Shown: piece after piece, positions 5,061 to 60,201 of the stretch
Layout of the letters: each line of letters opens with the position of its first letter
Numbering within the stretch: the first letter of the stretch is position 1
Assembly (NCBI GenBank): GCA_045604705.1
Contig: JAZUOO010000012.1
Span: 11,429-75,428, forward strand
DNA from: Eubacteriales bacterium
GTDB taxonomy: Bacteria; Bacillota; Clostridia; Oscillospirales; CAG-382
Direction: 5' to 3'
DNA: 64,000 bases
Made by a program: the position numbers and the translations under genes
Notes under the pieces: model-generated
What the model was told of the DNA's origin: nothing
Databases searched by the model: none
Seen by the model: only the letters and a program-made list of their open reading frames with translations

Positions 5061-5094
5061 GGAGTCTCAAGCAAAGAGACTCCTTGAATTTTTA
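5061..5094. terminator. bidirectional hairpin between convergent genes
   Basis: GGAGTCTC-aagcaaa-GAGACTCC, with T-rich sequence on both sides. Confidence 0.55.
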
Positions 5095-6882
5095 TGCTAT
5101 AGGCTCAAAATCAGCCGCACCATGCTTACAAAGAGGACATACAATATCGTCCGGAAGATTTTCCCCCTCATAAACCCATCCGCAAACCTTGCAAACAAAG
5201 CCTTTTTTACCATCGGTTTCAGGCTTAGGTTTTACGTTTTCCTGGTAATAGGTATATGTCATTGTAGGGTTGCTGTTTAGTACTCTTGCCTCTGTTACGC
5301 TGCATATGAACATACCGTGTGTATCAAGATCGATATACCGCTCAACCTTAAGAGACATGAAAGAATTAATATATCTCGGGAGGAATGCGAGCCCGTTATC
5401 GGAACGAAGTGGTTCACAATCGGCAAATTTGTCAACGTTTCTTCCGCTTACAAAGCCAAAAGCTTCAAATACCTTGAACGGAGCTTCTGTCGAGAGACAG
5501 TTGACATTCATAATGCCTGTCTGCTTTATAATGTGATGTGAGTAGTTTTCTTTATTTATTGTAACGGCGATTCTGTTAGGTGTATTAGTAACCTGAGTAA
5601 CCGTATTAACTATGAGACCATTGTCTTTCTTGCCGTCGTTGGATGTAACAACATAGAGACCGTAACCTATATTAAAAAGTGCAGTAAGATCGTTTTTGTT
5701 GGCTGTTTCATCTCTCTGTGCAAGATATTCTTGACAAAGTTCATCTGCAAGAGCATTCAGTTGTGCGCGGCTTTCGTCATTAAGTGCTGACAAGATTTTT
5801 ACATTATTCTCCGCAAATGTAATGTTCTTGCAAGATTCGAGAAGACCTTTCATTACTTTCGCAGCAAGAGGTGCCCAGCTTCCGTTTTCAATAAGAGCAA
5901 CAGTTCTGTTTTTGAAGGCTCTCTCTGTCAGGTGATTTATGAATTCGCGCATAAACGGGAAAATTTCTGCGTTGTATGTTGTGGTTGCGAGAACGAGCTT
6001 GCTGTATTTAAATGCATCTGCAACCGCTTCGGACATATCACATCTTGCAAGATCGTAAATCTTGAGCTTCGGACATCCGTTAGCTTTGATTCTCTCACAG
6101 AGCTCGTTGACAGCCTTTTTGGTATTTCCATAGACAGAAGTGTATGCCACAACGATACCGTCTTCCTCAGGTAAATATGATGACCATGTATTGTAGAGTT
6201 CAAGATAATATCCAAGATTATCGGAAAGAACCGGACCGTGAAGAGGACAAATTTTTGCAATATCAAGAGTTGCTGCTTTTTTAAGAAGTGCTTGTACCTG
6301 TGCACCGTATTTTCCAACAATTCCGATATAATAACGTCTTGCTTCGTCAATCCAGGGTTCATCCGTGTCAAGAGCTCCGAATTTACCGAAACCATCTGCC
6401 GAGAAAAGAACCTTGTCTTTTACATCATATGTTACAATAACTTCCGGCCAATGAACCATAGGAGCTGTTACAAAAGTGAGGGTATGTGAACCAAGGGAAA
6501 GTGTATCTCCTTCGCCAACAACTATTCTTCTGTCGTCAAATGATGTTCCAAAGAAGCTCTGCATCATATTGAATGCTTTAGCTGAAGATACGATTGTACA
6601 ATTAGGATATGCTTTCGCAAATGTATTAATATTGGCAGAGTGGTCAGGCTCCATATGCTGAATTATAAGATAATTAGGTGCTTTTGATCCGAGGGTATTC
6701 TGAATATTATCGAGCCATTCGTGGGTAAACATCGCATCAACGGTGTCAATAATAGCAATCTTTTCATCAATAATAGCATAGGAATTATATGAAATACCGT
6801 TAGGTACGCGATACTGTCCTTCGAATAAGTCAATCTTTTTATCATTGACTCCGATATATTTGATGTCACTTGTGATATACAT
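5092..6882 (-). CDS. multidomain flavodiiron protein: metallo-beta-lactamase-like diiron domain, flavodoxin-like domain, flavin-reductase-like domain and C-terminal rubredoxin
   Basis: HMEPDH diiron motif. Flavodoxin-like VAYTSVYGNTKK. Flavin-reductase-like LYVVTSNDGKKDNGLIVNTV. C-terminal CKVCGWVY...CPLCKHG rubredoxin. Confidence 0.85.
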   Translation of the reverse strand: MYITSDIKYIGVNDKKIDLFEGQYRVPNGISYNSYAIIDEKIAIIDTVDAMFTHEWLDNIQNTLGSKAPNYLIIQHMEPDHSANINTFAKAYPNCTIVSSAKAFNMMQSFFGTSFDDRRIVVGEGDTLSLGSHTLTFVTAPMVHWPEVIVTYDVKDKVLFSADGFGKFGALDTDEPWIDEARRYYIGIVGKYGAQVQALLKKAATLDIAKICPLHGPVLSDNLGYYLELYNTWSSYLPEEDGIVVAYTSVYGNTKKAVNELCERIKANGCPKLKIYDLARCDMSEAVADAFKYSKLVLATTTYNAEIFPFMREFINHLTERAFKNRTVALIENGSWAPLAAKVMKGLLESCKNITFAENNVKILSALNDESRAQLNALADELCQEYLAQRDETANKNDLTALFNIGYGLYVVTSNDGKKDNGLIVNTVTQVTNTPNRIAVTINKENYSHHIIKQTGIMNVNCLSTEAPFKVFEAFGFVSGRNVDKFADCEPLRSDNGLAFLPRYINSFMSLKVERYIDLDTHGMFICSVTEARVLNSNPTMTYTYYQENVKPKPETDGKKGFVCKVCGWVYEGENLPDDIVCPLCKHGAADFEPIA

Positions 6883-7002: not shown

Positions 7003-8205
7003 TTACTCAAGCATTGATACTATATCCGGAAATATTTCTAGACTTCTTTTAAGTATACCATGCATATGTGCGATTGCAATACCGTAATTTACCATAGGAA
7101 CACCTGCTTCTTTTGCTCTGTCAATTCTTGACTGCATTTCTTTTTCATTAAGCATACAACCGCCACAATGAATACAAAGCTTATATTCATCGAGATTATC
7201 AGGATATTCTCCACCGCTTGTAAGTGTAATTTCCGGTTTTACACCGCTAAACTTTTCTATCCAATTGGGAATTTTTACACTGCCGATATCACCACATTGA
7301 CGATGATGTGTACAACCCTCGGAAATAAGAATTTTGTCGCCCGGCCGCAGCTTTGAAAGCTGTGAGGCACCTTTAATCAATTCCTTTAAATCACCTTTAT
7401 ATCTTGCAAATAATATTGAGAATGATGTAAGTGTAATGTCACTAGGTACAATTTTAGAAACCTTGCCGAATGCCTGAGAATCGGTTATAACCATTTTCGG
7501 TTTTTTTGCAAGGCTTCCCAATGTAGTTGCAAGCTCTGTATCTCTGCAACATACGGGTATACAGCCCGCTTCAAGAATATCTCGGATTGTCTGCTGCTGC
7601 GGAAGGATCAATCTTCCTTTGGGTGCTGCTTCGTCAATCGGAATGACGAGTATAACGACATCACCGGGAGTTAAAAGGTCGGCAACAATATATTTTGTGT
7701 TCTCAACAGTACCTTTAAATTTTCCGAGAGCTTCTTTCAATTCACTTATACCATATCCGCTTTTGGCGCTGACATAAATTGTATTTTCGGTATTAGCAGG
7801 TATATTTTCTAAAAGATCACTCTTGTTATATACTATAATATACGGTGTCTTTTTCTCGTCAAACATAGAGATTAATTTTTCATCCCAATCTGTTAAACCC
7901 GAAGTTGCATCACATACCAAAACTGCAATATCAGTACTTGTAAGAGTTTCTTTTGCTTTCTTTACTCTGAGTTCTCCCAAATCTCCCTCATCATCAATAC
8001 CGGGGGTATCAACTATTACAACAGGACCAAGCGGAAGAAGCTCCATTGCCTTTTTTACGGGGTCGGTTGTTGTGCCTTTATAGTTGGATACGACGGATAA
8101 TTGCTGACCGGTAACTGCATTGACCAGGCTTGATTTCCCTGCATTCCTTAAACCGAAAAATCCTATATGACGTCTTTCGGCACTTACTGTTTCATTTAAA
8201 CTCAT
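7003..8205 (-). CDS. hydF: [FeFe]-hydrogenase H-cluster maturation GTPase HydF
   Basis: P-loop GLRNAGKSSLVNA, DTPG and NKSD GTPase motifs. C-terminal cluster motif EGCTHH...LCIHCGGC (CxH...HCxxC). Confidence 0.9.
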   Translation of the reverse strand: MSLNETVSAERRHIGFFGLRNAGKSSLVNAVTGQQLSVVSNYKGTTTDPVKKAMELLPLGPVVIVDTPGIDDEGDLGELRVKKAKETLTSTDIAVLVCDATSGLTDWDEKLISMFDEKKTPYIIVYNKSDLLENIPANTENTIYVSAKSGYGISELKEALGKFKGTVENTKYIVADLLTPGDVVILVIPIDEAAPKGRLILPQQQTIRDILEAGCIPVCCRDTELATTLGSLAKKPKMVITDSQAFGKVSKIVPSDITLTSFSILFARYKGDLKELIKGASQLSKLRPGDKILISEGCTHHRQCGDIGSVKIPNWIEKFSGVKPEITLTSGGEYPDNLDEYKLCIHCGGCMLNEKEMQSRIDRAKEAGVPMVNYGIAIAHMHGILKRSLEIFPDIVSMLE

Positions 8206-8217
8206 AATATCCTCTTT

Positions 8218-9333
8218 TCAAAACGCCGATGCTTCGGATGCAGGTGCAAAAATCTGTTCTGCCTGTTCATTAGTTAGATTTACTCCGAATACGTCTTTGT
8301 AATATTTCTTTGTTTCTTCGATTATATCAATATCCTTGAATATTTCCGGATAAACTGTCTTTGCTATCCAAAAAAGTGTAACAGGGGTATCAACACCACA
8401 AGTATAGCTTCTGTACATTCCGAGCGGCATTTTGTATACTCTCTTGTTTTTGACAGCATCAATTTCAGCCCATTTTGGATCATCATAAAGTGTTTCGGGT
8501 TGTGCTGTAGTGAAATTTGTTATAAGGATACATTCCGGATTCCATGTGTAAATCTGCTCCATATTTACTGTTACGGAATTATCCTTATTGATTTCCTGTC
8601 CAACATTTTTTGCACCGACGGCATCTGCCCACCATTGACCGAAGAAGCGATTTCCGCTTGTTGCAATCATAGTGTCTGTATATTGATATAGGAAGAATAT
8701 GTCCTCTTTATCAGCTTCCGACAGATTTTTTGTGCGTTCGTTTATTTTGTCCATTACTTCTTTACTATAGTTATCAACGAGTTTTTTCTTTTCATTTTCG
8801 GGGAAAATCTGTGAAAGTAATTCAATCCAATTTTCAAGTGTTACGACAGCATCATAGTCCCATTTATTGACGGAAACCGCTATTGCGGGAATTCCTGCTT
8901 TCCTGCAAATCTCGCCATGCTGAACGTCCGCTGCATTATATAGAAAAATATCGGGATTTAGTTCAAGTAAAGCTTCAATGTTGAGATTTGCACCGTTAAT
9001 ATAGTCTGTTTCGGCGTTGAGTATTTCTGGATACAGTTCTCCGAGCAGGCTACTTTGTGCCGCTGTCATGCATTGTTCCGGCATACCGATTATTTTCTCG
9101 GCCGAATCAAAGAAAATTGCAACTACAGAAGGCAACGGATAAATTTTACCTATTGCAATTGTTTCGATATTTTTCGGAACTGTCACTTCTATTCCAAGGT
9201 GATCTGTGATTGTTATTGTATTATTGTCGGTATTATTTGTACCATTGCTTGATTCATCATTTTCGCAAGAATATAATGTTATGATAGCGATGCTTGCAAT
9301 CAACAGTAATAAAAGTTTAAATATTGATTTCAT
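8218..9333 (-). CDS. ABC transporter substrate-binding lipoprotein, iron-siderophore/cobalamin (FecB/BtuF-like) class
   Basis: Lipoprotein signal LLLLIASIAIITLYSC. Overall resemblance to periplasmic binding protein 2 family members. Sits in an operon with a FecCD-type permease. Confidence 0.8.
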   Translation of the reverse strand: MKSIFKLLLLLIASIAIITLYSCENDESSNGTNNTDNNTITITDHLGIEVTVPKNIETIAIGKIYPLPSVVAIFFDSAEKIIGMPEQCMTAAQSSLLGELYPEILNAETDYINGANLNIEALLELNPDIFLYNAADVQHGEICRKAGIPAIAVSVNKWDYDAVVTLENWIELLSQIFPENEKKKLVDNYSKEVMDKINERTKNLSEADKEDIFFLYQYTDTMIATSGNRFFGQWWADAVGAKNVGQEINKDNSVTVNMEQIYTWNPECILITNFTTAQPETLYDDPKWAEIDAVKNKRVYKMPLGMYRSYTCGVDTPVTLFWIAKTVYPEIFKDIDIIEETKKYYKDVFGVNLTNEQAEQIFAPASEASAF

Positions 9334-9345
9334 TTTAATTCTCCG

Positions 9346-10485
9346 CTATTTCAATTTGTCGGTAATATATTTAATACTGCCTATAAGATTCGGAATGTTG
9401 TCACGATAAATTCTTCCGGAAAAAGCCTCGTGAGGAAGTTCTATAAAATTTGTTTTATCCGAGCAAATCGGTTTGTACATCGGGTCGGCAATGATATTTT
9501 TCGCATCTTTTATTATTGGTATGATTTCATCCTCAAATACAGCATTTACACATGATACAGAAAGAAGAGCTTGTGGTGTGTTGACAGCTGAAATTACTTT
9601 TGCTTCGATTCCTGCTTCGTTTCGTATAGCATGTGCAAGAGATAGAGATGTGACGCTTTCTCCGATTATAATGACATTTTTCGTATCGTTGGCTTGAACG
9701 GAAATCATATCTTCTGAAGTTATCATACATCGGTTTATGTCGTTAACAAGCTGCTCAGTAAGTTTTTTGCCATAGGGTACACCGATAACATATGGTATTC
9801 CAAATTTTTTTTTCATTATCTTGGCACATTCAAGTCCGCACGAAGATACAACAAGGTTAGCTTTTGCGTTTCCTGCATTCTCTATTTCGGTAAAAGAACT
9901 TTCCATAGCCATAACAGAATTGATTTTAATGCCGCATTTTTCAAATGTATGCTTCATAGAAGCTACACTGCCGTTTACGGAAAAATCAAGCGGAGTCACT
10001 CCAAGAATATTTATTGAAAAATCACTGTTGGTTTCTGTTTTTTTGCACATTCTGCACGTGAATTCAGAGAAAGCCATTGAGGCACCGTGAATATATGATT
10101 GCATACCGGCTGTTTCAAATCCGAATGTTGGTATTCCACATCTGTTTTCAATCTCTTTGGCAACTGAATTTAAATCACAACCGGTCAAGTAAGGAATAGG
10201 TGATCCCGCAATTGCTATGAAACGGGGATTAAGTTCTTTGGCAGCCTGTACGGTGTCTGTGATTAATTTTTCATCATTTCCGAATATAGCATCTTTTTCC
10301 GTGAGCCCCGATATAAAAACAAGACTGTCCGTGTGATACCATCTAGGTTCATCGTGAGTACTGTATGTTGAATTACAACCCGACGGATCGTGCATTACAA
10401 TTAGCCCTCCAAGCTCAAAAAGGGCAGAGCATACTCCGCTCGTATCACCTGTATAGGTCGAAATTATTCTTGCAGTCTGTTTCAT
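9346..10485 (-). CDS. nitrogenase component-1-type oxidoreductase, NifK/NifN/BchB-like subunit
   Basis: VMHDPSGCNS and IAIAGSPIPYLTGCD motifs resemble the HGxxGC and cluster-ligand regions of the NifD/K/E/N family. Start chosen at ATG 10485, which forms an ATGA overlap with the upstream stop; the track ORF starts at 10500. Confidence 0.75.
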   Translation of the reverse strand: MKQTARIISTYTGDTSGVCSALFELGGLIVMHDPSGCNSTYSTHDEPRWYHTDSLVFISGLTEKDAIFGNDEKLITDTVQAAKELNPRFIAIAGSPIPYLTGCDLNSVAKEIENRCGIPTFGFETAGMQSYIHGASMAFSEFTCRMCKKTETNSDFSINILGVTPLDFSVNGSVASMKHTFEKCGIKINSVMAMESSFTEIENAGNAKANLVVSSCGLECAKIMKKKFGIPYVIGVPYGKKLTEQLVNDINRCMITSEDMISVQANDTKNVIIIGESVTSLSLAHAIRNEAGIEAKVISAVNTPQALLSVSCVNAVFEDEIIPIIKDAKNIIADPMYKPICSDKTNFIELPHEAFSGRIYRDNIPNLIGSIKYITDKLK

Positions 10486-11816
10486 GTGCAACCACAGCAC
10501 CCCATTCCTTTAATTTGTATAAGACTCTTTGCATCCTTAGGGGATAAATATGCCTCTTTAAGATCTTTACATAACTTTATAATCGCTTCAAAACCGTAAT
10601 ATCCTCCGTTCTCGACGATGTTTACAAAATAGTCAGTTCCACTAAAAAAAGCGGCTTTTTGTCCGATTGCAACTGTTTTAACTTCGGAGCATCTTGGTTC
10701 AACTCTCATGCATGTATGTACAGTAGGATACAATAGTAATTCAGGATAATTCTCTTTAAGATATATAAAATCCTTTTCTTCCTCAAAAGTAAATGTGTCA
10801 GCGTAGATCTTTGTAACATTAAATCCATTCACAAGAAGAAGTTTTGCAAGGCTAAGCGGTCTTGTGAAAGCTGTGTAATCAATGGTAATCGGAGTATCAC
10901 CGATCAAATTTTTGACTTTCGTGATTTCCTCGTTGCACTTGTACTTTAATTCTGAAAAATCCGGAATATCTATGTTAAGATTATCACATAAAGCTCTATA
11001 ATTTTCAGTGATTTCATCACAATCAAAACTGAAAGGAAGATGCATATGATTCTGATTATGTATTTTTTGCAAGCTTTTACCAGCCGCCATTGCAGATGGA
11101 AATGTTGTGATACAGTGAGATGCTTTTGAAAGCTTAAGATAATCGTCAAAGCATTTACAATCCTGTATTTCAAGCAGAGAAAATCCATTGTCATTCAGTA
11201 ATTTAACAATCTCACTGTCTTTATCAAGAGGTAAATCATTGCCTACGATACTAATCACATTTGGTGATAAATCCGTCTTATCAAGTAAACTGTATAAACG
11301 CTGCCTCATTTTCGCATCAGGTGTCATACCGCTTTTTCTCATAATGGGATTCATATAGCAATCGGTAAATTTTATGTCAGGGAATCTTTCTCTTAACTCT
11401 TTGTAACAAATTGAAAGATCGCATCCCAGGAAGTGGTGTACACAGCTCGTATAGACAAGAATAGCTCTCGGCTTCTTTGGGAGCTTATTTATTATATCGG
11501 TAACACCCTCAATTATCAGTTCTTCATTATCGCCTGTAATGACATTGCTTTCATTTACAGTAATCGTTGAGAATCTTTCACTCATTCCAAGTTCTGCCGC
11601 AGTAAGAACAACACCACGTAAACACCCTTGTGCACAGACAAATATTTGATGTGCTTCCGGAATCAACATACCGGTATGAACTATATTCCAAGTCCCTCTT
11701 GCAGGTGCTGAAAACTCAAGACCTGATCTGAACGGTGAGGGGTATGATGCATCTTTGAATTTCACTGCAGCAATGCATTTGTTATCTCGGTCTCCGAGTT
11801 TTTTTATTGTATTCAC
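10482..11816 (-). CDS. nitrogenase component-1-type oxidoreductase, NifD/NifE/BchN-like subunit
   Basis: FVCAQGCLRG and LVYTSCVHHFLGCD Cys motifs. 444 aa. GTG start one nt after the NifH-like stop. Cys-rich C-terminus KGMGCCGCT. Confidence 0.75.
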   Translation of the reverse strand: MNTIKKLGDRDNKCIAAVKFKDASYPSPFRSGLEFSAPARGTWNIVHTGMLIPEAHQIFVCAQGCLRGVVLTAAELGMSERFSTITVNESNVITGDNEELIIEGVTDIINKLPKKPRAILVYTSCVHHFLGCDLSICYKELRERFPDIKFTDCYMNPIMRKSGMTPDAKMRQRLYSLLDKTDLSPNVISIVGNDLPLDKDSEIVKLLNDNGFSLLEIQDCKCFDDYLKLSKASHCITTFPSAMAAGKSLQKIHNQNHMHLPFSFDCDEITENYRALCDNLNIDIPDFSELKYKCNEEITKVKNLIGDTPITIDYTAFTRPLSLAKLLLVNGFNVTKIYADTFTFEEEKDFIYLKENYPELLLYPTVHTCMRVEPRCSEVKTVAIGQKAAFFSGTDYFVNIVENGGYYGFEAIIKLCKDLKEAYLSPKDAKSLIQIKGMGCCGCT

Positions 11817-11817
11817 A

Positions 11818-12576
11818 TTACACCCCCTCGCATTTTTTGATTATATTCTTAGCGAGCAGCCTGTATTCACTCGCCATATCACTTTTTGGAAATGCTTCAA
11901 CTACTGTTTTAGAGAGCTCTTCTGCTTCCTGCACTGTTTCACTTCGTGAAAGTGTTCCTGTTATTTCACTTTTTATGTCGCTTGCAAGCTCCGTAACCTT
12001 TTCAAATTCATTTTTAACGTTGCGCTTGTTAAGTATTATTCCACCGAATTTAGCATACCCTCTGCTTTTGAAATTGTCGACTGCCATCGCAATATTTGCC
12101 GCGGCATAAATAGACATATTTTCACCGCTTGTAACAACAAAAACATATTCGGCGTAACCCGGTCGCATTGGCATTGTAAAACCGCCGCAAACGACATCTC
12201 CCAGTACATCGAAAAGAACTATATCAGGTTCATATGTCTCGTAAACACCTTTTTCAGAAAGTTTTTCCAATGCGGCAATTATTCCTCTGCCTGCACAACC
12301 AGTTCCAGGGGCGGGACCGCCGGCTTCGGCACAAATTACCCCCTTATATCCGATTCTGACCATTTCGGAAAGTTCAAAATCATTTCCTTTTTCCTTGACA
12401 AGATCGAGTATGGTTGTCATTTTTTCTTTACCGCGAAGAAGAACAGTAGAATCGGCTTTGGGATCACAACCGATTTGCAGAACTTTATAGCCATCATCGG
12501 CAAGTGCAGCCGCAATATTTGCAACGGTTGTCGATTTACCAATTCCACCTTTTCCGTAAATTGCTATTTTAATCAT
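11818..12576 (-). CDS. NifH/BchL/CfbC-family ATP-dependent reductase (nitrogenase iron protein-like)
   Basis: IAIYGKGGIGKSTT P-loop. EAGGPAPGTGCAGRG and DVLGDVVCGGFTMP, the equivalents of both NifH 4Fe-4S Cys ligands. Confidence 0.9.
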   Translation of the reverse strand: MIKIAIYGKGGIGKSTTVANIAAALADDGYKVLQIGCDPKADSTVLLRGKEKMTTILDLVKEKGNDFELSEMVRIGYKGVICAEAGGPAPGTGCAGRGIIAALEKLSEKGVYETYEPDIVLFDVLGDVVCGGFTMPMRPGYAEYVFVVTSGENMSIYAAANIAMAVDNFKSRGYAKFGGIILNKRNVKNEFEKVTELASDIKSEITGTLSRSETVQEAEELSKTVVEAFPKSDMASEYRLLAKNIIKKCEGV

Positions 12577-12609
12577 AATTTCAGATTCCTTTCAAGGCTA
12601 TGCGTAAAA

Positions 12610-13662
12610 TTAATTCTCTCTATAATCGCCTCGAGTGCAAACTACTTCGTACCCGATTTCATCCATCTGCTTCCGAAGAATTCTTATACCGGTTTCTGCA
12701 TCAAATTCTGTCCCTACTTTATTATCGTAAAGCATGTATTTTTTCCTTACGCTCATTGGCGAAAGATTCGGCATAACAACATTGCATCCTGCAAGTACAC
12801 CAAGCTGTCTGCCGTTTCCGCTTGCTGTTCCCAAAGCAGTGGTGGAGGGGAGAAGCACATTCGGAAGCATTATGCGTGTCAGACTTATTAAAAATAATGT
12901 AAGCTCAATGCTCCCGGGATTATAATTACGAAACGGTGTCTCTTTGTGCGGCAAGAATGGGCCGAGTCCGACCATGTGAGGTTTGAATACTTGCATAAAT
13001 ATCATGTCTTCAGCAATGTCTTTATTTGTTTGAAAAGGTACGCCGACCATAAAGCCACATCCGGTCTGATAGCCAATTTCTTTGAGGTTTTTCAGGCATT
13101 CGATTCTTTCATAGTGTTTTTGTATGCTCGGGTGTATTTTGCCATACAGTTTCGGATTTGCAGCTTCGTGCCTTATGAGGTATCTGTCCGCTCCTGCAGC
13201 ATAAAGTCTTTGGTATGATTCTCTGCTTCGTTCGCCGACCGATAATGTTACCGCACAATTCGGAAATTCCTTTTTTATAGATTCTACAATGTCACACAGT
13301 ATTTCTTCACTGAAATGTCCATCCTCACCGCCCTGAAGTACGAAAGTTCTGAAGCCGTGAGTATATCCGTCTTTCGCACATTCCAAAATATCTTCCTTTG
13401 ATAATCGGTATCTTGAAACACAAGTGTTGGATTTCCTTATACCGCAGTAATAGCAGTCGTTTTTACAGATATTTGAAAATTCAATTATACCCCTGAAGAA
13501 TATTTTTTTGCCGAATTTCGCTATTGTCAATTCTCTCGCAATATTTTCAGCATATCGTCTTTCAGATTCCGTATAGTTGTTAAGAATGTGAACCCATTCA
13601 TTTTTGTCAAGACTTTTATTTTGATTTAATTTATCTATTAGTTCTTTTACCATGAGCATCAT
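12610..13662 (-). CDS. hydE: [FeFe]-hydrogenase H-cluster radical SAM maturase HydE
   Basis: IIEFSNICKNDCYYCGIR (CX3CX2C), VLQGGED, GADRYLIRHEAANP, GLGPFLPHKETP, LTRIMLP...PSTTALGT and NVVMPNLSP closely follow my recollection of Thermotoga HydE. Start set at ATG 13662, 2 nt after the upstream stop; the track start at 13722 overlaps the upstream gene. Confidence 0.85.
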   Translation of the reverse strand: MMLMVKELIDKLNQNKSLDKNEWVHILNNYTESERRYAENIARELTIAKFGKKIFFRGIIEFSNICKNDCYYCGIRKSNTCVSRYRLSKEDILECAKDGYTHGFRTFVLQGGEDGHFSEEILCDIVESIKKEFPNCAVTLSVGERSRESYQRLYAAGADRYLIRHEAANPKLYGKIHPSIQKHYERIECLKNLKEIGYQTGCGFMVGVPFQTNKDIAEDMIFMQVFKPHMVGLGPFLPHKETPFRNYNPGSIELTLFLISLTRIMLPNVLLPSTTALGTASGNGRQLGVLAGCNVVMPNLSPMSVRKKYMLYDNKVGTEFDAETGIRILRKQMDEIGYEVVCTRGDYREN

Positions 13663-13663
13663 C

Positions 13664-14725
13664 CTATTTTTTATCAGCAATTGTCGCTTTGACACTAACA
13701 TCGGGCAGAATGGAAAGTTCATGTCTCAGCGATTCAATTTCATTTACCGGAGCATCAATTGTTACATTTATTATGTATACTCCACCTTTGTTGTATGGCA
13801 TTCCCATTCTTCCTATTATACAGTTTGAGTATTTAGAGAATATATCATTGATTTTACCGCTCAAATCGTAGTCGGAAAATATAGCGGAAATAACGGCTAT
13901 CGCATTTTTGTTTGAGTATGCAATATCATCAATCTTGTTTTCAGCGAGTCGAACCGGCAAGATGCTTTTATAAATGTTGCCCGTGGTTTCTATTTCGCTG
14001 ATTACAGTATTAACTCCAAAAGCATTCCTTATTATTTCTTCGGTTACAATTTTTTGTGTGTCTCCGAAAATAGTTTTACCACCCTTATGAAGTATAAGAG
14101 ACTTATTTGCTCTTGTCAGAGCGTGTTCCGGGTAGTGCGTGTTGAAAATTACACACATTCCCCTTGAAGCAAGAGCGTTGAGTGTGTCGAGTACTATAAG
14201 TTGATTTCTGAAGTCCAGATTTGATTCCGGTTCATCAAGTATAAGAAGCTTCGGTTCGGAGACAAGCGCCCTCGCTATTAAAACCATTTGGAATTCGCCG
14301 CCACTCATTTTATTGCATTTCTTTTCAAGAAGGTGAGATATCCCCAGTGACTTTGCAATATCGGCAGCCTTTTGATAATCCTTTTCCGACGGCGATGAAA
14401 ATATACCAATCTTTGATGCCATTCCCAGAAGTATCATTTCCTGTGCACTCAGCGAGGAAGAATTTCCCTTTGCCTGAGGAACATATGAAACCTTACTCCA
14501 TAGTGCTTTTGATGGCAACTTATAAATATCAGTTCCGTCAAGGTAATTTTTTCCATCGTTGAATTTCAGGAATCCCATAATACATCTGAGCATTGTAGTT
14601 TTACCGGCACCATTTGGTCCAAGAATTGCAATAATATCTCCTCCGTTTGCCTGGAAATTTAAATTGTCAATTATTTTCTTGTTTTTATCGTACGAGAAAG
14701 AAGCGTTTTCAATTTTTAAAAGCAT
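13664..14725 (-). CDS. ABC transporter ATP-binding protein (FecE/FepC-like) with a C-terminal TM1266-like (NikR-C/ACT-like) domain
   Basis: Walker A GPNGAGKTT, signature MSGGEFQ, Walker B LLILDEPESNLD. The last ~90 aa (NAIAVISAIF...IIGRMGMPYNKGGVYIINVTIDAP...LPDVSVKATI) match the IIGRMGIPY-type motif of the putative iron-only hydrogenase system regulator family. Confidence 0.85.
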   Translation of the reverse strand: MLLKIENASFSYDKNKKIIDNLNFQANGGDIIAILGPNGAGKTTMLRCIMGFLKFNDGKNYLDGTDIYKLPSKALWSKVSYVPQAKGNSSSLSAQEMILLGMASKIGIFSSPSEKDYQKAADIAKSLGISHLLEKKCNKMSGGEFQMVLIARALVSEPKLLILDEPESNLDFRNQLIVLDTLNALASRGMCVIFNTHYPEHALTRANKSLILHKGGKTIFGDTQKIVTEEIIRNAFGVNTVISEIETTGNIYKSILPVRLAENKIDDIAYSNKNAIAVISAIFSDYDLSGKINDIFSKYSNCIIGRMGMPYNKGGVYIINVTIDAPVNEIESLRHELSILPDVSVKATIADKK

Positions 14726-14748
14726 ATTACCATTCCTTTCGGAATTAT

Positions 14749-15771
14749 TTAGTGCCCGAAGCCCTGAGTTTTTCTCATGAGAATAATGAAGAAAGGTGCT
14801 CCGATTATAGCAGTTAATACAGATAGAGGAAGCCCTGCGGAAGTAATTGTTCTTGCAAGTGTATCTACAATAACCATGAATGCAGAACCGAATAAAGCAC
14901 AGGCGGGAAGTATTTTCACATGATTGTTACCAAATTTCATTCTGCAGATATGTGGAACAAGAAGACCAACCCAGCCAACCTGACCACTCATTGATACACA
15001 TGATGCCGTAATCATTGTTGCACATATAATGACAATTGTTCGAAGTAGCCTCACATTAACACCGCTTGAAATGATTTCATCATCGCTAAGTGGCAGAAGA
15101 TTCAACCTCCAGCGAAGCAACAGCAGAACAAATATACCGATAAGAATTACCGGAATGCCTAGCGAAAGACTTTCGTAGCTTGCCGAATTAAAACTTCCCA
15201 TCAGCCAATATTCAATGGCAGGTAATTGACTTTCTGTATCGGCAGTATATTTTACAAGTGTAATCAAAGCCGAAAATAACGATCCGATCATTATACCGCC
15301 AAGCACGACTCCGCCTAGTCCCTGTTTGTTTTTTCCGGTACCTGCAATCACTGTCAGAATTACAGCTGTAAGCCCCATAACGAACGACATAATTTGTATT
15401 CCCGGTAGATTAAACCCGAACAGTAACGAGAGTGCGGCACCGAATGATGATCCTGACGCCACTCCCAATGTGTCCGGTGTTGCAAGAGGATTTGAAAACA
15501 GACTCTGAAAAACACAGCCCGAAACTGATAACCCCGCACCTACGAGCAGAGCAAGAAGTATTCTCGGTAATCTGTTATGCCAAAGTATATATTCTATTCT
15601 TGCGTTTTCCTCAACGGAATCTGTGAATTTTGAAATAATTGATGATAAAATTTCATCGGGTGTAACTTTAAATGTTCCCGTTCCCAAGGCTATTATAGAT
15701 ACTATAATTGGCAAGACAATCAGTATCGAGATCCAAAATAACGAAAGCTTTCCACGATTTTTCTTTTTCAT
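14749..15771 (-). CDS. FecCD/BtuC-family ABC transporter permease
   Basis: 340 aa, about 9-10 TM segments, LPRILLALLVGAGLSVSG and GLLVPHICR motifs typical of FecCD permeases. AAGGAG RBS. Confidence 0.9.
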   Translation of the reverse strand: MKKKNRGKLSLFWISILIVLPIIVSIIALGTGTFKVTPDEILSSIISKFTDSVEENARIEYILWHNRLPRILLALLVGAGLSVSGCVFQSLFSNPLATPDTLGVASGSSFGAALSLLFGFNLPGIQIMSFVMGLTAVILTVIAGTGKNKQGLGGVVLGGIMIGSLFSALITLVKYTADTESQLPAIEYWLMGSFNSASYESLSLGIPVILIGIFVLLLLRWRLNLLPLSDDEIISSGVNVRLLRTIVIICATMITASCVSMSGQVGWVGLLVPHICRMKFGNNHVKILPACALFGSAFMVIVDTLARTITSAGLPLSVLTAIIGAPFFIILMRKTQGFGH

Positions 15772-15945
15772 TTCAGGCTCCTTAAAAAAATAACCGAACT
15801 CCGCATGGGCAGAGTACGGTCATCACAGTAATATTATAACATATCTATATGCTGTTTATTTTTCTGTAATTTAAACCGAAACCTTTCACCCGGATATATA
15901 TCTTCATGTCAGGCAGTAGTTTGTATTTTGATTATACCATAGGGT
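15772..15945 (-). promoter_or_regulatory. operon leader: extended -10 promoter(s), about 130-nt untranslated leader and an intrinsic terminator abutting the RBS (candidate riboswitch or attenuator, class not recognised)
   Basis: Minus strand: TGGTATAAT (15939..15931). A second TGTTATAAT (15841..15833). Hairpin ACCGUACUCUGCCCAUGCGGAGUUCGGU (15820..15793), then UAUUUUUUU, then AAGGAG and the ATG at 15771. Confidence 0.5.
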
Positions 15946-15991
15946 TGTTAAAAAAGTAACAGAATACTATTTCCTATCTGTAAAATAGGAA

Positions 15992-16450
15992 TCACGCGTT
16001 ATAAGAAAATGTCATGTTTGTCCAATTATCGAGAACAGCCAAATATCTTTCAGCTTCATAGTGAGCAAGACTCAAATCAAGCGTTCTGTAGTTTCCGCAT
16101 TCAATTTCAGAATTACCGAAAACTTCGCCATTGTAATCAATAATCTCTTTTAATACTTTCTTTATCTCCTCAAATACGCGCACATGATCGGCATTTCTGA
16201 TAAGAAGATAAAAACCCGTCTGACAACCCATGGGACCGAAATAGATTACATCATTAGAAATAGGGGAGTTCCTTATAAATGTCGCAAACATATGCTCCAT
16301 TGTATGCATCGCACCGACTCCGATATAATCACCCGAATTGGGTTTTCTCATTCGTAAATCGTAAGTAGTAATGTCGTCGTCTATCCTTGAAATATACATT
16401 CCTTCAGCTATTTTTGTATGATCAACAGTAAAACTTGTAATTTTTTTCAT
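15992..16450 (-). CDS. luxS: S-ribosylhomocysteine lyase LuxS
   Basis: HTMEHMFATFIRN (HxxEH metal site), GPMGCQTGFY. 152 aa. Confidence 0.95.
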   Translation of the reverse strand: MKKITSFTVDHTKIAEGMYISRIDDDITTYDLRMRKPNSGDYIGVGAMHTMEHMFATFIRNSPISNDVIYFGPMGCQTGFYLLIRNADHVRVFEEIKKVLKEIIDYNGEVFGNSEIECGNYRTLDLSLAHYEAERYLAVLDNWTNMTFSYNA

Positions 16451-16463
16451 TGTGGTTCATCCT

Positions 16464-16925
16464 TTACTTTATTCCGAGGTATTCCAAAACTTCATAAACA
16501 TGACCGTCTGCTTTAACTTTTTCGAAAATTTTTTCAACGTTTCCGTCTTCATTTATTATATATGTTGTTCTTACAATCCCCATTGAGACCTTGCCGCACA
16601 TTTTCTTTTCCTGCCATACGCCGTAATCCTCTATAACATCCTTTTCGGGATTGGAAAGAAGTATAAAAGGAAGTGAATATTTCTGCGTAAACTTTGCATG
16701 AGAATTTGCACTGTCTTTATTAATTCCCATAACTACAACATTATTTTTCTCAAACTTTTCAAAATGTTCCGCAAATCCCAAAGCCTGTTTCGTGCACCCC
16801 GCCGTTGAATCCTTGGGGTAAAAATACAGCACCACTTTCTTGCCGCGGAAATCACTAAGTGTATATTCTTTTCCGTCTGCGGCGATAAGCTTAAAATCGG
16901 GAGCTTTTGTGTTTACACTTATCAT
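16464..16925 (-). CDS. bcp: thioredoxin-dependent peroxiredoxin Bcp
   Basis: VVLYFYPKDSTAGCTKQA peroxidatic Cys motif. 153 aa. Confidence 0.9.
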   Translation of the reverse strand: MISVNTKAPDFKLIAADGKEYTLSDFRGKKVVLYFYPKDSTAGCTKQALGFAEHFEKFEKNNVVVMGINKDSANSHAKFTQKYSLPFILLSNPEKDVIEDYGVWQEKKMCGKVSMGIVRTTYIINEDGNVEKIFEKVKADGHVYEVLEYLGIK

Positions 16926-18344: not shown

Positions 18345-18715
18345 AATTTATACCTCCTTTCTTTCTATGCCTTAATTATACATAAATGTAAAAGTAATTT
18401 CAACGCAAAATGATTTCCATTAAAAACGTAATTTTCCAATACAACATAATTATGTAATATTGTAATTAATTTTGATTATTTGCTATCGAACATAAAAACA
18501 GTATATTTAGTTTTCTTATTGTCATTTTTGATATGTTTTAACAAATATTACCATTATTTCCATTTATTTTTGATAAATTTCATAAATTTTCATCATATTA
18601 GGGTTATTTGTTTACAACAAAAACTATTGAAAATGAAAAATGTGGTATATAATTTTAGTAACTGAATGGCATTAGCATACAGTGCCGTTCAAATAAAATT
18701 TTTTTGGAGGACTTT

Positions 18716-21700
18716 ATGAAGTATCTCAATTTCAAACGACCCCTTGCGGTCATACTGGCGTCTCTTCTGATTTTCAGCTCCGTTACTTTCGTGGCGTCGG
18801 CTCAGGAAAATGAAGAACCCACAACACCCGTTATTACTTATACTTTCCGCGGAGGAAGTAGCGAAGACAACGGAACCGGCGACTATGTTGTCGAAGTTCT
18901 CGCAAACGGAGGTCTTATCAACACAGGTTATGTTGAATTGACCTATAACACAGATCTATATTCAGATGCAGTATTCAAGTTTGCGGAAAATATTAAAGAT
19001 GCAAGCTTCTATTGGAATGTAGAGAACTCAGATGGAACGATCGGTGTAGGCTTTATGTCTGCGGCAGGTCTATCTAATGAAGATGCAGGTCTTTTTGCTG
19101 ACATTGAAAACCCCAGTACAAATATCGCTTATATCGATGCAGATGGCGAAGACCTTGTAAAAATCGGTACATTCACATTCACATTTGAAGATGGAAACAC
19201 CTATGAAACTGCATTTACAACATTGAAAGCTCCAACAAGCAAAGTAGCTGTTGCAGATACAAAGGTTATTCCTCACTACACGGATAGCTTTTCTACTAAA
19301 AAACTGGATGCAGAAATCGAAGAAACAACAATGCTTGTTTTCACAGCTGATGACTTCGATGTTTCCGGCACTACAACAACCTACAACGGTGAACCTCAGT
19401 CACCCACAGTTACATCCGATGTTGCAGATTTCACTCTTGCTCTCGGCGAAGATGAGCTTGAAGAGGTAACCGCTGCTGATACATACGCAATCAAGGTTGT
19501 TGATGTATCCGCCAAAGAGGGCTACTACTATTATGACGCAGATGAGATTGATCTTGGTAAGAATTTTGTAATCGCAAGAGGCACAGATACAATTGATGCT
19601 CCTGTAGCTAATCCCGCTGAAGATGTATATATAAAGGACGGCTTCAATCCTCAGACCATCAAACTTTCATCAACTGATTGGAAAGTAACCGACACAGATC
19701 TTCTTGATGCCGGTGAATACCAAATCAATGTTGAATTTGTTGGTAAACTTGATGAAAACATCGACTACACAGCAGGCACAGGTGTAACTTACGACGAAGA
19801 AAATGATAAGTACACAGCAAAGATTGCATTTGAAGTTACAAAAGCTGAAGGAAGTGTTCCCGCAATAGTAACTCCCGATGCTGTTCCATATAACTCTGAA
19901 GTTGCTCAGACTGTAACAGGTTATGGCATTACTCTCGAAAATGATTGGGAATTTGTGGATAATACTACAGAACTTTCAATCGGCGAAAATAAGGACATAG
20001 CAATTAAGTATGTTCCCGAAGATGTTACTAACTACACATATGAAGGTTACGACGAAGAACACGGCTATGTTCCCGGAACAGTTACCGTAACGCTTAACAA
20101 GGCAACCGGTACAGCTCCCGAAGCTCCCGTAGTTGTTACAGATGATCAGAGACGTGATTCTCTTGACGATGTGATCAAAGCTTCTGATCTTGTAACAACT
20201 GTAGGTGTTTGGTCTTATACAGATGCAGAGCTTATAACAGGCAATAACACAATCACATTTACATACAAGCCCGCTGATCAGGACGTGGTTGATTATGAAG
20301 GTCTTGAGAATTGGAATGATACAAGCAAACAGTTCGAATACGAAGTAACAGTTAAGGTTCTTGCTCCCTATTTCGACCCCAAGGATATTTATCCTCCTGA
20401 AAATCCTGCGGCTGTAAACTTTGAAGAAGGTAAAACCTTCACAGCAGTAGACTTTGCTCTTGCAAATGGTTGGACATATGCAGATGATTCATTTGAAATC
20501 ACATCCGCAGGAACAACAGAAGATGTTAAGGTTCTCTATGCTATTCCCGAAGGATATGACGGTCTTGATCCCAAATATGAATATACAGTAGAAAACAATA
20601 ACATTGTTTATTACGTTGACCTCACAGTCAACAAGATACCCGGTACAGTTGTAGAGCCTGTAGTTCCCGAAACGTTAATATTTGATGGCGAAAACAAGAA
20701 CATTTCTAAATATGTTGAGCTTGCGACTGGTTGGAGTTTCGCAGAAGACAAGACACTTGAATATGATGGAGTTAATAAAATCAAAGTTCAGTACACAGCT
20801 GATACCAAGAACTACACATGGGACGGCTATGACATTGAGGTTGCAGATTCTAATAACGGCTTGATTAGCAAGACATTTGATGTTACATTCATTAGGAAGG
20901 ATCTTGATACTTCAATATTCCCTCCCGTACTCGTAGAAGGCACAAACAATAAGACATTTGTTGAAGCAGGCTACAAGTATAGCGACTTTGTTATCGCAAC
21001 AAAAGGCTGGGAATATGATACTCCCGATGTTCCAATCACAGAAGCTACAACAGTACCTGCTAAGGTTAAGTACGAAATCGGCGAAGACTATAAGATTCCT
21101 GCAGGTTCCGAATGGGAGGTTGAAGGAGATTATATAGTTGCAAATATAGCACTTACTGTTGTTAAAGCAGATCTTCCCACAGCCGCTGCAGTTGCTACAC
21201 CAATAGATGTACCATACGACAAAAATGAAAAGACTGTTGAAGTAACTCCTAATGAAGCTGATTACACCGGTCTTGGTGAAATAAGCGGTATTTCTTATGT
21301 GAAAGTGGTAGATGAGGATGAAATTCCCGTTGTCGGTAACCCTGTAAATGCGGGCACATATAATGTTGTTGTAACATTCGCAGATGGTACAAACTATAAT
21401 GGCGGCACAATCACTCTTGAGGGTTACCTCACAATCAATAAGGCTGATGTTAAAAAAGACGTTGACTTTACAGTTAGTGATACATCACATGTATACGATG
21501 GCAAAGTCAAGACAGTAACAGTTACAAAAGTTAATGAAGAAATCGGTGCTCCCAATGTAGAGTACACAGGCGATGTTGTAAATGTTGGAAAGTATACCTT
21601 CACAGTATCAGGTGATGCAACAGAAAATTATAATGGTTACACATTTGAATACACAAATGGCCTCGAAATCACAGAGGCAACTCTCAAAGCAGCTGATTTC

Positions 21701-37971: not shown

Positions 37972-39027
37972 TCAGATATTCTTTTCGTTTTCGGGCTTTT
38001 CATAAGCTTCCTCGTGTTTTTCAACTCTCACGGAACCCCTATTCTTTGACGGTTTGATGTCCGATAGCGGATTTGAGTTCGCAGCATTTTTCAATTGTTC
38101 ATCACTTATGTGTGTATATATTTCCGTTGTTGCAAGGTTTTCGTGCCCGAGTATATCCTTAAGTATTCTTACATCCGTATGTCCGTATTGATACATGAGA
38201 GTAGCAGCTGTATGCCTGAGTTTGTGTACCGACATACCGGGGCGGTCTAGACCTGCTTCTTTCAGATGTTTGTAAATAAGCCATTGGACGGTCTGCTTGC
38301 TTATTCTGTTTCTGTTTCTTGAAATAAAAAGTGCATTTTCCGCTTCATGTTTAGGATTTGTAGGTCTCAAGTTTAAATAATTTTTTATAGCTATTTCGCA
38401 GGCGTCGTTGAGATAAACGATTCTTTCCTTGTTACCCTTACCGATAATTCGCAGTGTTTCAAAATCCTTGCTGATGTCCTTAAGGTTTATCCCGACAAGC
38501 TCGGAAACTCTGAGTCCAAGGTTTAGAAAAAGTGTTATTATTGCAAAATCTCGCTCATAGTTATTTCCTTTAACTGATTCAAGAAGCTGTTTCGATTCTT
38601 CGATATCAAGATATTTCGGAAGTCTTTTTGGTTTTTTTGTTCCTTCAATGTATTCCGTCGGATCTTTCTCAATCAGTTTTTCGTTCTTACTCAGAAATTT
38701 ATAAAATGAACGTAGTGCAGAAAGTTTTCTGTTTCGCGATGCAGGGGCATTGTTCTTTTCAGTGAAGCAGCATTTCAGAAATTCCAAAATATCTTTCGCC
38801 TCAATGGAAAATACAAGCTTATCATCAACTTCGTGGAAGCCCAGATCGCCTTCAAAGTAGCCGGCATATTTCTTAGGATGCCGTTGTTTGAGCATGAATC
38901 TGTAAAAAGTACGCAGATCATGGTAGTATTGGAATACTGTATTTTTGCTTCTGCCTTTATTTACAATCATATGATTAAGGAATTTTTGAACAGATGCAGG
39001 AGCATCGCTGAAATCAAGATTAGTCAT
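37972..39027 (-). CDS. tyrosine-type site-specific recombinase (XerC/XerD family) with a basic C-terminal tail
   Basis: N-terminal SAM-like domain. GLRVSELVG (Arg), HKLRHTAATLMY (H-x-x-R), LGHENLATTEIYTH (catalytic Tyr). Confidence 0.85.
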   Translation of the reverse strand: MTNLDFSDAPASVQKFLNHMIVNKGRSKNTVFQYYHDLRTFYRFMLKQRHPKKYAGYFEGDLGFHEVDDKLVFSIEAKDILEFLKCCFTEKNNAPASRNRKLSALRSFYKFLSKNEKLIEKDPTEYIEGTKKPKRLPKYLDIEESKQLLESVKGNNYERDFAIITLFLNLGLRVSELVGINLKDISKDFETLRIIGKGNKERIVYLNDACEIAIKNYLNLRPTNPKHEAENALFISRNRNRISKQTVQWLIYKHLKEAGLDRPGMSVHKLRHTAATLMYQYGHTDVRILKDILGHENLATTEIYTHISDEQLKNAANSNPLSDIKPSKNRGSVRVEKHEEAYEKPENEKNI

Positions 39028-56510: not shown

Positions 56511-56527
56511 AAAGCAGAAATAAAAAT

Positions 56528-56674
56528 CTTATCAAGAGTGGCTGAGGGACAGGCCCTGTGAAGCCCGGCAACCTGTAGAGATACAAGGTGCTACTTCCTG
56601 CAAGGACACAAGTCTTTGAGAGATGAGAAACACTTCCTCAAGGTGCAAATGTGTGCTTTGAGTTTTTTATTTTG
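56528..56674 (+). promoter_or_regulatory. SAM-I riboswitch (S-box) with expression-platform terminator
   Basis: CTTATCAAGAG..GAGGGACAGGCCC..GAAGCCCGGCAACC..GGTGCTACTTCCTGCAAGG..GAGAGATGAG matches the S-box core. Terminator CTCAAGGTGCA/TGTGCTTTGAG plus TTTTTT at 56637-56674. Confidence 0.9.
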
Positions 56675-60026: not shown

Positions 60027-60102
60027 GGGAGCTTAGCTCAGCTGGGAGAGCATCTGCCTTACAAGCAGGAGGTCATAGGTTCGATCCCTATAGCTCCCAC
60101 CA
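60027..60102 (+). tRNA. tRNA-Val (anticodon UAC), CCA encoded
   Basis: GGGAGCT acceptor stem, GCTC/GAGC D-stem, anticodon loop CTTACAA, GGTTCGATCC T-arm, AGCTCCC-A-CCA. 76 nt. Confidence 0.92.
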
Positions 60103-60125: not shown

Positions 60126-60201
60126 GGGAGCTTAGCTCAGCTGGGAGAGCATCTGCCTTACAAGCAGGAGGTCATAGGTTCGATCCCTATAGCTCCCACC
60201 A
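60126..60201 (+). tRNA. tRNA-Val (anticodon UAC), second identical copy
   Basis: Sequence identical to 60027-60102, after a 23-nt spacer. Confidence 0.92.

Follow-up and report, generated by a model that had tools for sequence, protein, structure and literature searches.

Gene Content of the Locus

The 64,000-nt stretch of contig JAZUOO010000012.1 (Eubacteriales bacterium) analyzed here, hereafter the window, carries on its minus strand an eight-gene operon in which a nitrogenase-like (NFL) NifH-D-K trio and an ABC importer stand together with hydE and hydF, two maturase genes of the [FeFe]-hydrogenase H-cluster. We tentatively propose that this operon forms an additional, accessory part of the H-cluster maturation regulon. 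Gene calls combined the list of open reading frames (ORFs) of the window with Pfam and NCBIfam hidden Markov model (HMM) scans. Together they give eight consecutive, close-set genes with the identities assigned to them in a preliminary description of this DNA. From the leader to hydF, the features are the following, where SBP is the substrate-binding protein, component 1 refers to the PF00148 nitrogenase component-1 family and R3 is a covariance model introduced below.

15772-15955, minus strand: promoter-like region and 5′ leader RNA (R3 covariance-model match, hairpin, fold z-score)
15874-15918, minus strand: conserved motif of the leader (R3, 21 bits, E-value 0.0023)
14749-15771, minus strand: FecCD/BtuC-type permease of a type II ABC importer (PF01032, 281 bits)
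13664-14725, minus strand: ABC ATPase with a fused C-terminal TM1266-like domain (PF00005, 106 bits; PF21699, 58 bits)
12610-13662, minus strand: HydE radical SAM (S-adenosylmethionine) maturase (TIGR03956, 520.7 bits, cut-off 254.6)
11818-12576, minus strand: NifH-like ATPase/[4Fe-4S] reductase subunit (PF00142, 294 bits)
10482-11816, minus strand: divergent component-1 subunit of 444 aa, previously called NifD-like (PF00148, 49 bits)
9346-10485, minus strand: second component-1 subunit, 379 aa, previously called NifK-like (PF00148, 126 bits)
8218-9333, minus strand: lipoprotein SBP, Peripla_BP_2, cluster A-II (PF01497, 67 bits)
7003-8205, minus strand: HydF GTPase scaffold (TIGR03918, 560 bits, cut-off 325.6)

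The recomputed junctions, from the permease to HydF, are of 23, 1, 33 and 1 nt, a 4-nt ATGA overlap, and twice 12 nt, as had been described; the 1-nt junction between the ATPase gene and hydE presumes that HydE starts at 13662. The 379-aa subunit starts at the ATG at 10485, like the database protein P0241, and this ATG overlaps the upstream stop codon. Terminator-like hairpins are not enriched within the operon (10 vs. 6.2 ± 2.4 in shuffled sequence), and the stretch from hydF to the flavodiiron-protein gene downstream of it showed no terminator. The reported lack of hydG and hydA also holds for the window: a tblastn search of the 64 kb with a HydG query matched hydE alone, with 24% identity, and the larger ORFs that were scanned included none of hydA size with a hydrogenase domain.

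The Importer and Its TM1266-Like Domain

The permease is matched by the BtuC, FecC and FhuB models below their cut-offs, and the cut-off of no curated transporter family is reached. The lipobox Cys23 of the SBP is invariant among homologs, and the relatives of this protein in the PDB are 4OVK, an unannotated binding protein (138 bits), the Helicobacter pylori CeuE structure 4INO (70 bits), deposited as a nickel-binding protein, and HI_1472 (3PSA, 70 bits), the oxyanion binder MolA. A small metal complex is a plausible substrate class for the SBP and its importer.

With its FecCD permease, ATPase and Peripla_BP_2 SBP the cluster importer resembles the type II importers of chelated metals (BtuCDF, FhuBCD, HmuTUV, CeuE and MolABC), from which it differs by the C-terminal TM1266-like domain on its ATPase. 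This domain, overlooked in the preliminary description, covers residues 276-347 (approximately 13685-13900) and scores 58 bits with PF21699 against a cut-off of 27; annotation describes the members of the PF21699/TM1266 family as putative regulators of [FeFe]-hydrogenase systems. A GRMGMPY motif is conserved in the domain, and no Cys or His is. Many relatives of the operon are also preceded by a stand-alone TM1266 gene, and the product of the one at locus L007 reaches 114.5 bits with TIGR03959 (cut-off 60.8) and matches the PDB entry 2NZC. MetN and ModC carry C-terminal regulatory domains, and by analogy the TM1266 domain on the ATPase may mediate trans-inhibition.

Conservation of the Arrangement Across Genomes

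The 444-aa component-1 subunit has 3323 database relatives, named "nitrogenase component 1" at most, and a scan of one genome per species found such relatives in 395 species genomes, out of which 80 NFL loci were fetched and their synteny was analyzed by tblastn. Across these loci the gene order recurs as (stand-alone TM1266)-permease-ATPase(-TM1266)-(hydE)-nifH-D-K-SBP-(hydF), in Oscillospiraceae, Lachnospiraceae, Ruminococcus, Intestinibacter (including the cultured I. bartlettii DSM 16795), Erysipelotrichia, Mogibacterium and a metagenome-assembled genome of Flexilinea, and also in Loigolactobacillus. The bracketing by hydE and hydF to which the preliminary description had drawn attention is no local accident, because the same order recurs in 80 loci from many families; both maturase genes, on the other hand, are present in only 20 of the 48 loci that could be evaluated for the two, while 11 have hydE only, 5 hydF only and 12 neither. 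Taken singly, hydE occurs in 37 of 64 evaluable loci and hydF in 26 of 51. The FecCD permease is kept in at least 56 of the 80 loci, the ATPase-TM1266 fusion in 52 of 64 and the upstream stand-alone TM1266 gene in 51 of 60, and the component-1 subunits are always two different ones per locus.

Clustering of all ORFs flanking the 80 loci disclosed no further conserved neighbor family. No hydG, hydA, nifB, sulfur-metabolism, tetrapyrrole or siderophore genes are conserved beside the loci, and hydG never lies within 10 kb of the cluster. Two loci mark the extremes of gene content. In Loigolactobacillus binensis (L084, GCA_042676505.1, 86-16508), one NifH-like gene is accompanied by two D/K pairs, six SBPs, hydE and hydF; the sequence of this locus stops inside hydF, and a protein of the L. 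binensis cluster was found on two contigs. In a Clostridium sp. (L085), the minimal unit consists of leader, TM1266 and H-D-K only. Thus, the invariant core is the leader/TM1266 element together with NifH-D-K, usually with the importer, and hydE and hydF are frequent but facultative members.

HydE, HydF and the Canonical Maturase Operon

In related Clostridia the canonical maturase operon is TM1266-hydE-hydG-hydF. For comparison, a metagenome scan for HydG gave 80 hydG loci, which comprise 44 complete canonical operons, truncated ones and split forms. The split forms, which exist in gut metagenomes, are TM1266-hydG, TM1266-hydG-hydF without hydE, lone hydG, and TM1266-hydF-hydE-hydG. None of the 80 hydG loci holds NFL or importer genes. 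Split operons missing hydE, hydF or both are what one would expect to find as complements of an NFL cluster. The canonical operon and the NFL cluster have TM1266, HydE, HydF and the same 5′ leader with terminator in common, whereas the cluster has no hydG, contains in addition the ABC importer and the NifH-D-K-SBP genes, and often has TM1266 fused to the ATPase. In layout, the cluster looks like a canonical operon that has gained the importer behind TM1266 and has H-D-K-SBP in place of hydG.

The HydF of the window has the GTPase, dimerisation and tetramerisation domains (PF01926, PF18128, PF18133), and its GCTHH and IHCGGC motifs correspond to the CxH...HCxxC cluster site previously ascribed to it. 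HydF proteins 70-73% identical to it sit in canonical operons of a Roseburia sp. and another genome; for those of L081 and L083 the identity is 70-71%. In neighbor-joining (NJ) trees the canonical HydF sequences fall among the cluster ones, interleaved with them, and a split between the two groups appeared in 0 of 10 bootstraps, so that, as judged from these sequences, the cluster HydF is an ordinary ortholog.

The identity of HydE was likewise borne out, by the TIGR03956 score far above the cut-off and the CX3CX2C motif (C63, C67 and C70), yet the protein falls into a clade of its own, which lacks the auxiliary Cys triad. In the NJ tree 41 of the 42 cluster HydEs form one clade, recovered in 35 of 40 bootstraps; the exception, L032, has a hydE of canonical type after hydF, downstream of the SBP gene. 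Median identity is 54% between the cluster and canonical groups and 62% within each. The two groups have 30 invariant polar residues in common (C63, C67, C70 and 27 more) and are fixed differently at only three positions, all of them conservative changes, while the C-terminal auxiliary-cluster motif CX7CX2C is present in 73-82% of sampled canonical HydEs vs. 0-2% of cluster HydEs. Since the cluster HydEs form their own clade, the tree suggests co-inheritance of HydE with the NFL genes.

One reading of the missing hydG is that an imported H-cluster-related iron complex or precursor would be reduced by the NFL enzyme for HydE and HydF, replacing or supplementing HydG. Consistent with this, H-D-K-SBP occupies the hydG place of the canonical operon, hydG is absent both from the window and from the 10 kb around the 80 NFL loci, and the cluster has a dedicated HydE clade. 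However, because orphan TM1266-hydG, TM1266-hydG-hydF and lone hydG units occur in gut metagenomes, hydG probably simply lies at another place in the genome. That genomes often have hydE, hydF and hydG at dispersed sites also counts against a bypass, and there is no evidence for such complexes outside cells. We regard this reading as highly unlikely.

A Leader RNA Shared With Canonical Operons

The first gene of most clusters is preceded by a conserved leader block, e.g., UCUGACAYCGAAA...UUGAGRUGRAAGAYRC, followed by a variable stretch and an intrinsic terminator, whose 5′ arm can, at several loci inspected by eye, pair with the 3′ end of the block to give an antiterminator. Covariation supports two helices. 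In alignment A3, 15 sequences have CG and 13 have UA at pair 13-33, and the covariation score is 0.302 vs. 0.171 in shuffled alignments (reached in 0 of 500), slid controls giving 0.05-0.15; alignment A7 gives 0.305 vs. 0.129 (0 of 500).

The occurrence of the leader was surveyed with three covariance models, R1 and, for a shorter variant, R2 (built from 7 sequences) and R3, all with rough E-values. R1 has 46 matches in 1.3 Mb searched on both strands, every one on the coding strand just upstream of a cluster; they include loci on which the model was not trained, the I. bartlettii clusters without hydE and hydF (L029 and L031) and a canonical operon of Roseburia. With the three models combined, the leader is detected at about 49 of the 80 NFL loci, and many of those without a match are truncated upstream. 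Among the 80 hydG loci, 43 have a match, in every case on the coding strand and with few exceptions immediately 5′ of TM1266. The minimal unit of L085 is preceded by the leader as well. A census with a regular expression was discarded as too loose, with 182 off-target matches on the plus strand and 107 on the minus strand.

In the window the leader is missed by the long-form model R1 (5.8 bits) and by R2, but the broader R3, trained without the window or its closest relative L003, has the leader motif as its single significant match across the 64 kb. Just before the ribosome-binding site of the permease gene lies a terminator-like hairpin (15798-15815) with a T-run after it, and the fold z-score of the leader is -2.46. 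Rfam 15 has no match to the leader at the gathering threshold, and cobalamin, NiCo and the other families yielded nothing of relevance for the leader of the window or for L050. PyrR, which scored 25 bits on a canonical leader against a gathering threshold of 54, was rejected, this match being judged an effect of shared architecture. These sequence features make the leader a candidate for a new riboswitch, or for an attenuator that binds a protein, in the control of hydrogenase maturation genes.

At two loci the leader motif occurs twice (L013, 5594-5638 and 5969-6015; L035, 5583-5627 and 5981-6028), once before the stand-alone TM1266 gene and once between TM1266 and the permease gene, a spacing which suggests that the regulator gene and the rest of the operon are attenuated separately. 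Separately, the orphan TM1266-hydG units L141, L143 and L148 carry another conserved leader (e.g., GTTTTCGGGCAKCAGGG...), again followed by a terminator, which may represent a second leader type; the TM1266 proteins of these units are more divergent (47-53% identity).

The Nitrogenase-Like Trio

A NifH-type P-loop ATPase with two Cys next to a PF00148 pair with the component-1 fold places the trio in the NFL superfamily. In the NifH-like subunit the P-loop (GKGGIGKS) and both cluster cysteines (Cys94 and Cys130) were found as described, and all are invariant in 63 homologs. The cysteines claimed for both NifD/K-like proteins, one in an HGxxGC-like and one in a mid-domain position, are there in part. 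The 379-aa subunit keeps the Cys of an HDxSGC motif, the invariant Cys37 (Cys42 in the numbering of the 384-aa ORF), and usually Cys19, but has no mid-domain Cys; the 444-aa subunit is without the HGxxGC motif. Across about 70 homologs C61, C65, C125, H127, H128 and C153 of the latter are invariant, an invariant CxHH motif among them, and a C-terminal CxxC in a disordered or flexible tail is kept in 91-95%. By manual alignment the P-cluster-equivalent Cys number about two per subunit and about four across the pair and, because of this pattern, the D/K pair probably holds one inter-subunit [4Fe-4S] cluster. Ligand positions of the type used for the iron-molybdenum cofactor (FeMo-co) are absent from the component-1 subunits, although the equivalence to Cys275/His442 was not mapped residue by residue.

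In structural comparisons the AlphaFold2 models of both component-1 subunits match NifDK, NifEN, BchNB and MarDK chains at a Foldseek probability of 1.00. The 379-aa model (predicted local distance difference test, pLDDT, 81.7) is closest to BchB of DPOR, with TM-scores of 0.71-0.74 and 16-18% identity, followed by NifEN and NifDK, and its best PDB sequence matches are NifE and NifD. The 444-aa model (pLDDT 81.8) retrieves NifN, NifK, NifE, MarD and BchB with TM-scores of 0.55-0.65 and 10-16% identity, NifN and NifK chains ranking first by small margins, while no significant PDB sequence match was found for this subunit. Both proteins are thus component-1 paralogs, as their former D/K labels imply; which is alpha and which is beta is uncertain, since the 379-aa subunit favors NifE, NifD and BchB, and the 444-aa subunit favors, structurally, NifN and NifK.

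The trio was separated from the known families by curated HMM cut-offs and PDB searches, not by a reference phylogeny, and falls outside the characterized clades, in line with the preliminary description: the cut-offs for NifHDK/EN, BchLNB/XYZ and CfbCD are all missed and the Mar structures are distant. The NifH-like subunit scores 321.6 bits with nifH (cut-off 394), 309 with CfbC (402) and 199 with BchL (345). For the 379-aa subunit the best curated model is nifE (91 bits, cut-off 505), followed by NifD and BchB (67, cut-off 490), and the 444-aa subunit has 22 bits with the nifE model TIGR01283; the remaining component-1 models give 66 bits for nifD (cut-off 654), 26 for BchZ (529), 19 for a BchN-type model (324) and 31 for CfbD, TIGR03282 (268). 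Nitrogenase proper (NifHDK, VnfHDK, AnfHDK) was rejected on its scores, on the lack of the six P-cluster Cys and on the absence of NifB, NifE and NifN neighbors. DPOR and COR were rejected on the missed BchL/N/B and BchX/Y/Z cut-offs and on the lack of a chlorophyll-synthesis context, and CfbCD on its scores and on the presence of two different component-1 subunits vs. the single homodimeric CfbD. The trio is like DPOR, COR and CfbCD in pairing a NifH-type ATP-dependent reductase with a component-1 part without FeMo-co ligands or NifB, and also in its few Cys at the subunit interface, which suggest one [4Fe-4S] cluster; it is unlike them in adjoining an importer and HydE/HydF, with no tetrapyrrole biosynthesis neighbors.

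Membership in NifEN was rejected too, as the nifE score is far under the cut-off and no nif genes are nearby, but a function like that of NifEN has been proposed. In this reading H and D/K would act as a scaffold or insertase, maturing a metallocluster of hydrogenase or of another enzyme with the imported metal and no organic substrate, as put forward by Dos Santos et al. (2012; PMC3464626). The NifE and NifD matches of the 379-aa subunit and the NifN chains at the top of the 444-aa Foldseek list agree with it, and the CxHH motif and flexible C-terminal CxxC of the latter would suit metal hand-off. It is weakened by the distance of the nifE score from its cut-off, by the lack of conserved NifB-like radical SAM or cluster-assembly genes nearby, by the absence of any residue-level sign of an L-cluster-type site and by the small Foldseek margins among NifEN, NifDK, Mar and DPOR. 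We consider a scaffold function quite unlikely.

The methylthio-alkane reductase Mar (MarBHDK) and the isethionate reductase Isr (IsrBHDK) are, like the trio, NFL enzymes of non-diazotrophic function, and the NifH-like subunit is about as close to Mar as to NifH (Mar iron protein 9fmg_D, 244 bits, vs. NifH, 238 bits). They use complex clusters that depend on NifB/MarB, amid sulfur genes (PMC13474568), while the trio has neither NifB nor sulfur context nor the full P-cluster Cys set. Membership in Mar/Isr (Group IV-C/IV-F) was rejected, since 9fmg and 9d9u reach 31 bits with the 379-aa subunit and are absent from the matches of the 444-aa subunit. A Mar-like small-molecule reductase had been considered in the preliminary description since luxS (15992-16450) lies immediately upstream. 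In such a role the trio would act on small organosulfur compounds, with luxS as the tie to the activated-methyl cycle; the 6-bit lead of the Mar iron protein over NifH would fit it. This role did not survive the comparison of loci, as luxS is adjacent only in the window and in its closest relative L003, and NifB/MarB and sulfur genes are not conserved nearby. The component-1 scores and Cys pattern just given also disagree with it, as does the importer, of chelate type and not of sulfonate or thioether type, and we give it almost no credence.

The association with maturases had itself been noted in passing. In Coprococcus catus and other Firmicutes, Dos Santos et al. (2012; PMC3464626) reported NifHEN-like genes adjoining those for hydrogenase maturation; in other species they reported NFL genes beside ABC transporters. 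Their C. catus/Dorea longicatena clade, in which one subunit has two conserved Cys and its partner a single one (PMC3464626), resembles the trio in its NifH and two NifE/N-like subunits, its Firmicutes and gut origin and its Cys pattern; compared by description, the trio very probably belongs to the same family. That paper gives the association one sentence, and TM1266 fusion, leader RNA, relation to the canonical operon and separate HydE clade do not appear in it. A 2026 survey of NFL enzymes in Chemical Reviews lists several clades as uncharacterized and does not mention HydE (PMC13474568). In the literature we found no functional study of a nitrogenase-like cluster with HydE and HydF, the 2012 remark being the only relevant text. 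The novelty claimed for the association in the preliminary description has to be reduced accordingly, although the trio indeed fits no characterized clade.

A reading that does without the hydrogenase is stand-alone salvage or catabolism, in which an imported chelate or metallo-tetrapyrrole (haem, corrinoid-like or siderophore-like) would be reduced or opened for general recovery of metal or cofactor, possibly helped by the HydE-like radical SAM enzyme, with hydE and hydF nearby only because both gene sets obey one regulator and signal (leader and TM1266), e.g., metal limitation. In its favor, the characterized NFL enzymes with [4Fe-4S] clusters only all act on tetrapyrroles (PMC13474568), the 379-aa subunit is structurally nearest to DPOR BchB (TM-score up to 0.74), the two D/K pairs and six SBPs of Loigolactobacillus fit a family of substrates each with its own catalytic pair, H-D-K and importer occur without hydE and hydF in the 12 loci mentioned, and cluster HydE, as a clade apart, may act on another substrate. 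This is opposed by the leader and TM1266, otherwise tied to hydEGF operons, by a cluster HydF that is an ordinary ortholog, by a HydE that keeps all invariant catalytic residues of canonical HydE, and by the absence of conserved tetrapyrrole or siderophore metabolism genes nearby. We hold salvage to be possible but doubtful.

A Possible Accessory Operon of H-Cluster Maturation

The explanation we prefer, to which we assign a probability of about 0.4, is that the eight genes form a second operon, with an accessory role, in the regulon for maturation of the [FeFe]-hydrogenase H-cluster. The SBP and the FecCD/ABC importer would take up a small metal complex, of iron-chelate, metal-amino-acid or tetrapyrrole type, and the fused TM1266-like domain would shut the pump when ligand or product builds up. 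The NifH-like ATPase would deliver low-potential electrons to the D/K-like component, with its one probable [4Fe-4S] cluster, which would reduce the imported compound and so release or transform the metal. The product would feed the HydE and HydF steps of [2Fe] subcluster assembly, HydG being encoded elsewhere in the genome, and transcription would be gated by the structured leader, through a terminator/antiterminator switch, as in the canonical operons with the same leader. The direction of import, the substrate class, the cluster type, trans-inhibition and the hand-off to HydE/HydF are the parts that we infer. The link to H-cluster maturation is strengthened by the shared leader, the TM1266 fusion and the dedicated HydE clade.

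Several points weigh against this explanation. HydE, HydF and HydG alone are enough for maturation in heterologous hosts (cf. PMC2991362). Both hydE and hydF are absent from 12 of the 48 clusters evaluable for the two, and the importer is absent from L085. The solved relatives of the SBP are nickel-type and oxyanion binders too, and not iron-chelate binders alone. The separate HydE clade could equally be a paralog with a different substrate. A methanogen is not expected to mature an H-cluster. Nevertheless, NFL relatives with ABC transporters have been placed in Methanocorpusculum, as well as in Desulfitobacterium (PMC3464626) and, given these reports, the core function may be independent of hydrogenase.

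In its most specific form, the accessory-operon explanation would make the NFL reductase and its importer an unrecognized branch of H-cluster biosynthesis in gut anaerobes, supplying or salvaging an iron-containing precursor for the dedicated HydE and for HydF, and would make the leader a new riboswitch class or an RNA target of TM1266 that senses a maturation metabolite. This full version we rate as rather unlikely.

Other Features of the Window

Downstream of the operon, 120 nt 3′ of hydF and on the same strand, lies a gene for a flavodiiron protein fused to flavin reductase and rubredoxin domains (5092-6882, minus strand), and upstream, beside luxS, an AhpC/TSA peroxiredoxin gene (16464-16925, minus strand); the flanking of the operon by these oxidative-stress genes is not kept in other loci. 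Elsewhere, a SAM-I riboswitch (56526-56629, plus strand, 86 bits) is directly 5′ of the S-adenosylmethionine synthetase gene (56708-57886), an ordinary arrangement. A match to STnc490, an enterobacterial small RNA family (50150-50259, plus strand, 57.3 bits vs. a gathering threshold of 56), overlaps an ORF start at 50211 and is probably due to chance or a misassigned family, being unexpected in a low-GC Firmicute. The window also contains two tandem tRNA genes 27 nt apart (60027-60099 and 60126-60198, plus strand, 70.6 bits each), a tyrosine recombinase/phage-integrase gene (37972-39027, minus strand) and genes for large surface proteins with SLH or MBG domains (986-2854, 18704-22969 and 31401-34058, plus strand), whose domain content indicates an S-layer-bearing Gram-positive host.

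Implications

Most NFL clades are without known function, and gene context has been of little help so far (PMC13474568). Here, gene order, TM1266 fusion and a shared leader all three connect a large gut and rumen family, found in 395 species genomes, to the maturase regulon. Four things go beyond the 2012 remark: the fusion of TM1266 to the ATPase, a leader that is shared and apparently undescribed, a HydE clade specific to the cluster, and the way in which the cluster relates to the canonical operon. The leader is a testable candidate cis-regulatory RNA for hydrogenase maturation, and experiments are feasible because carriers are in culture, I. bartlettii DSM 16795 and Loigolactobacillus binensis, to which PMC3464626 adds Coprococcus catus GD/7. 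The route by which iron reaches the maturases is still under study (e.g., PMC12501116). If the link is functional, an uptake step and a reduction step would be added to H-cluster assembly in bacteria whose H2 production shapes gut and rumen fermentation.

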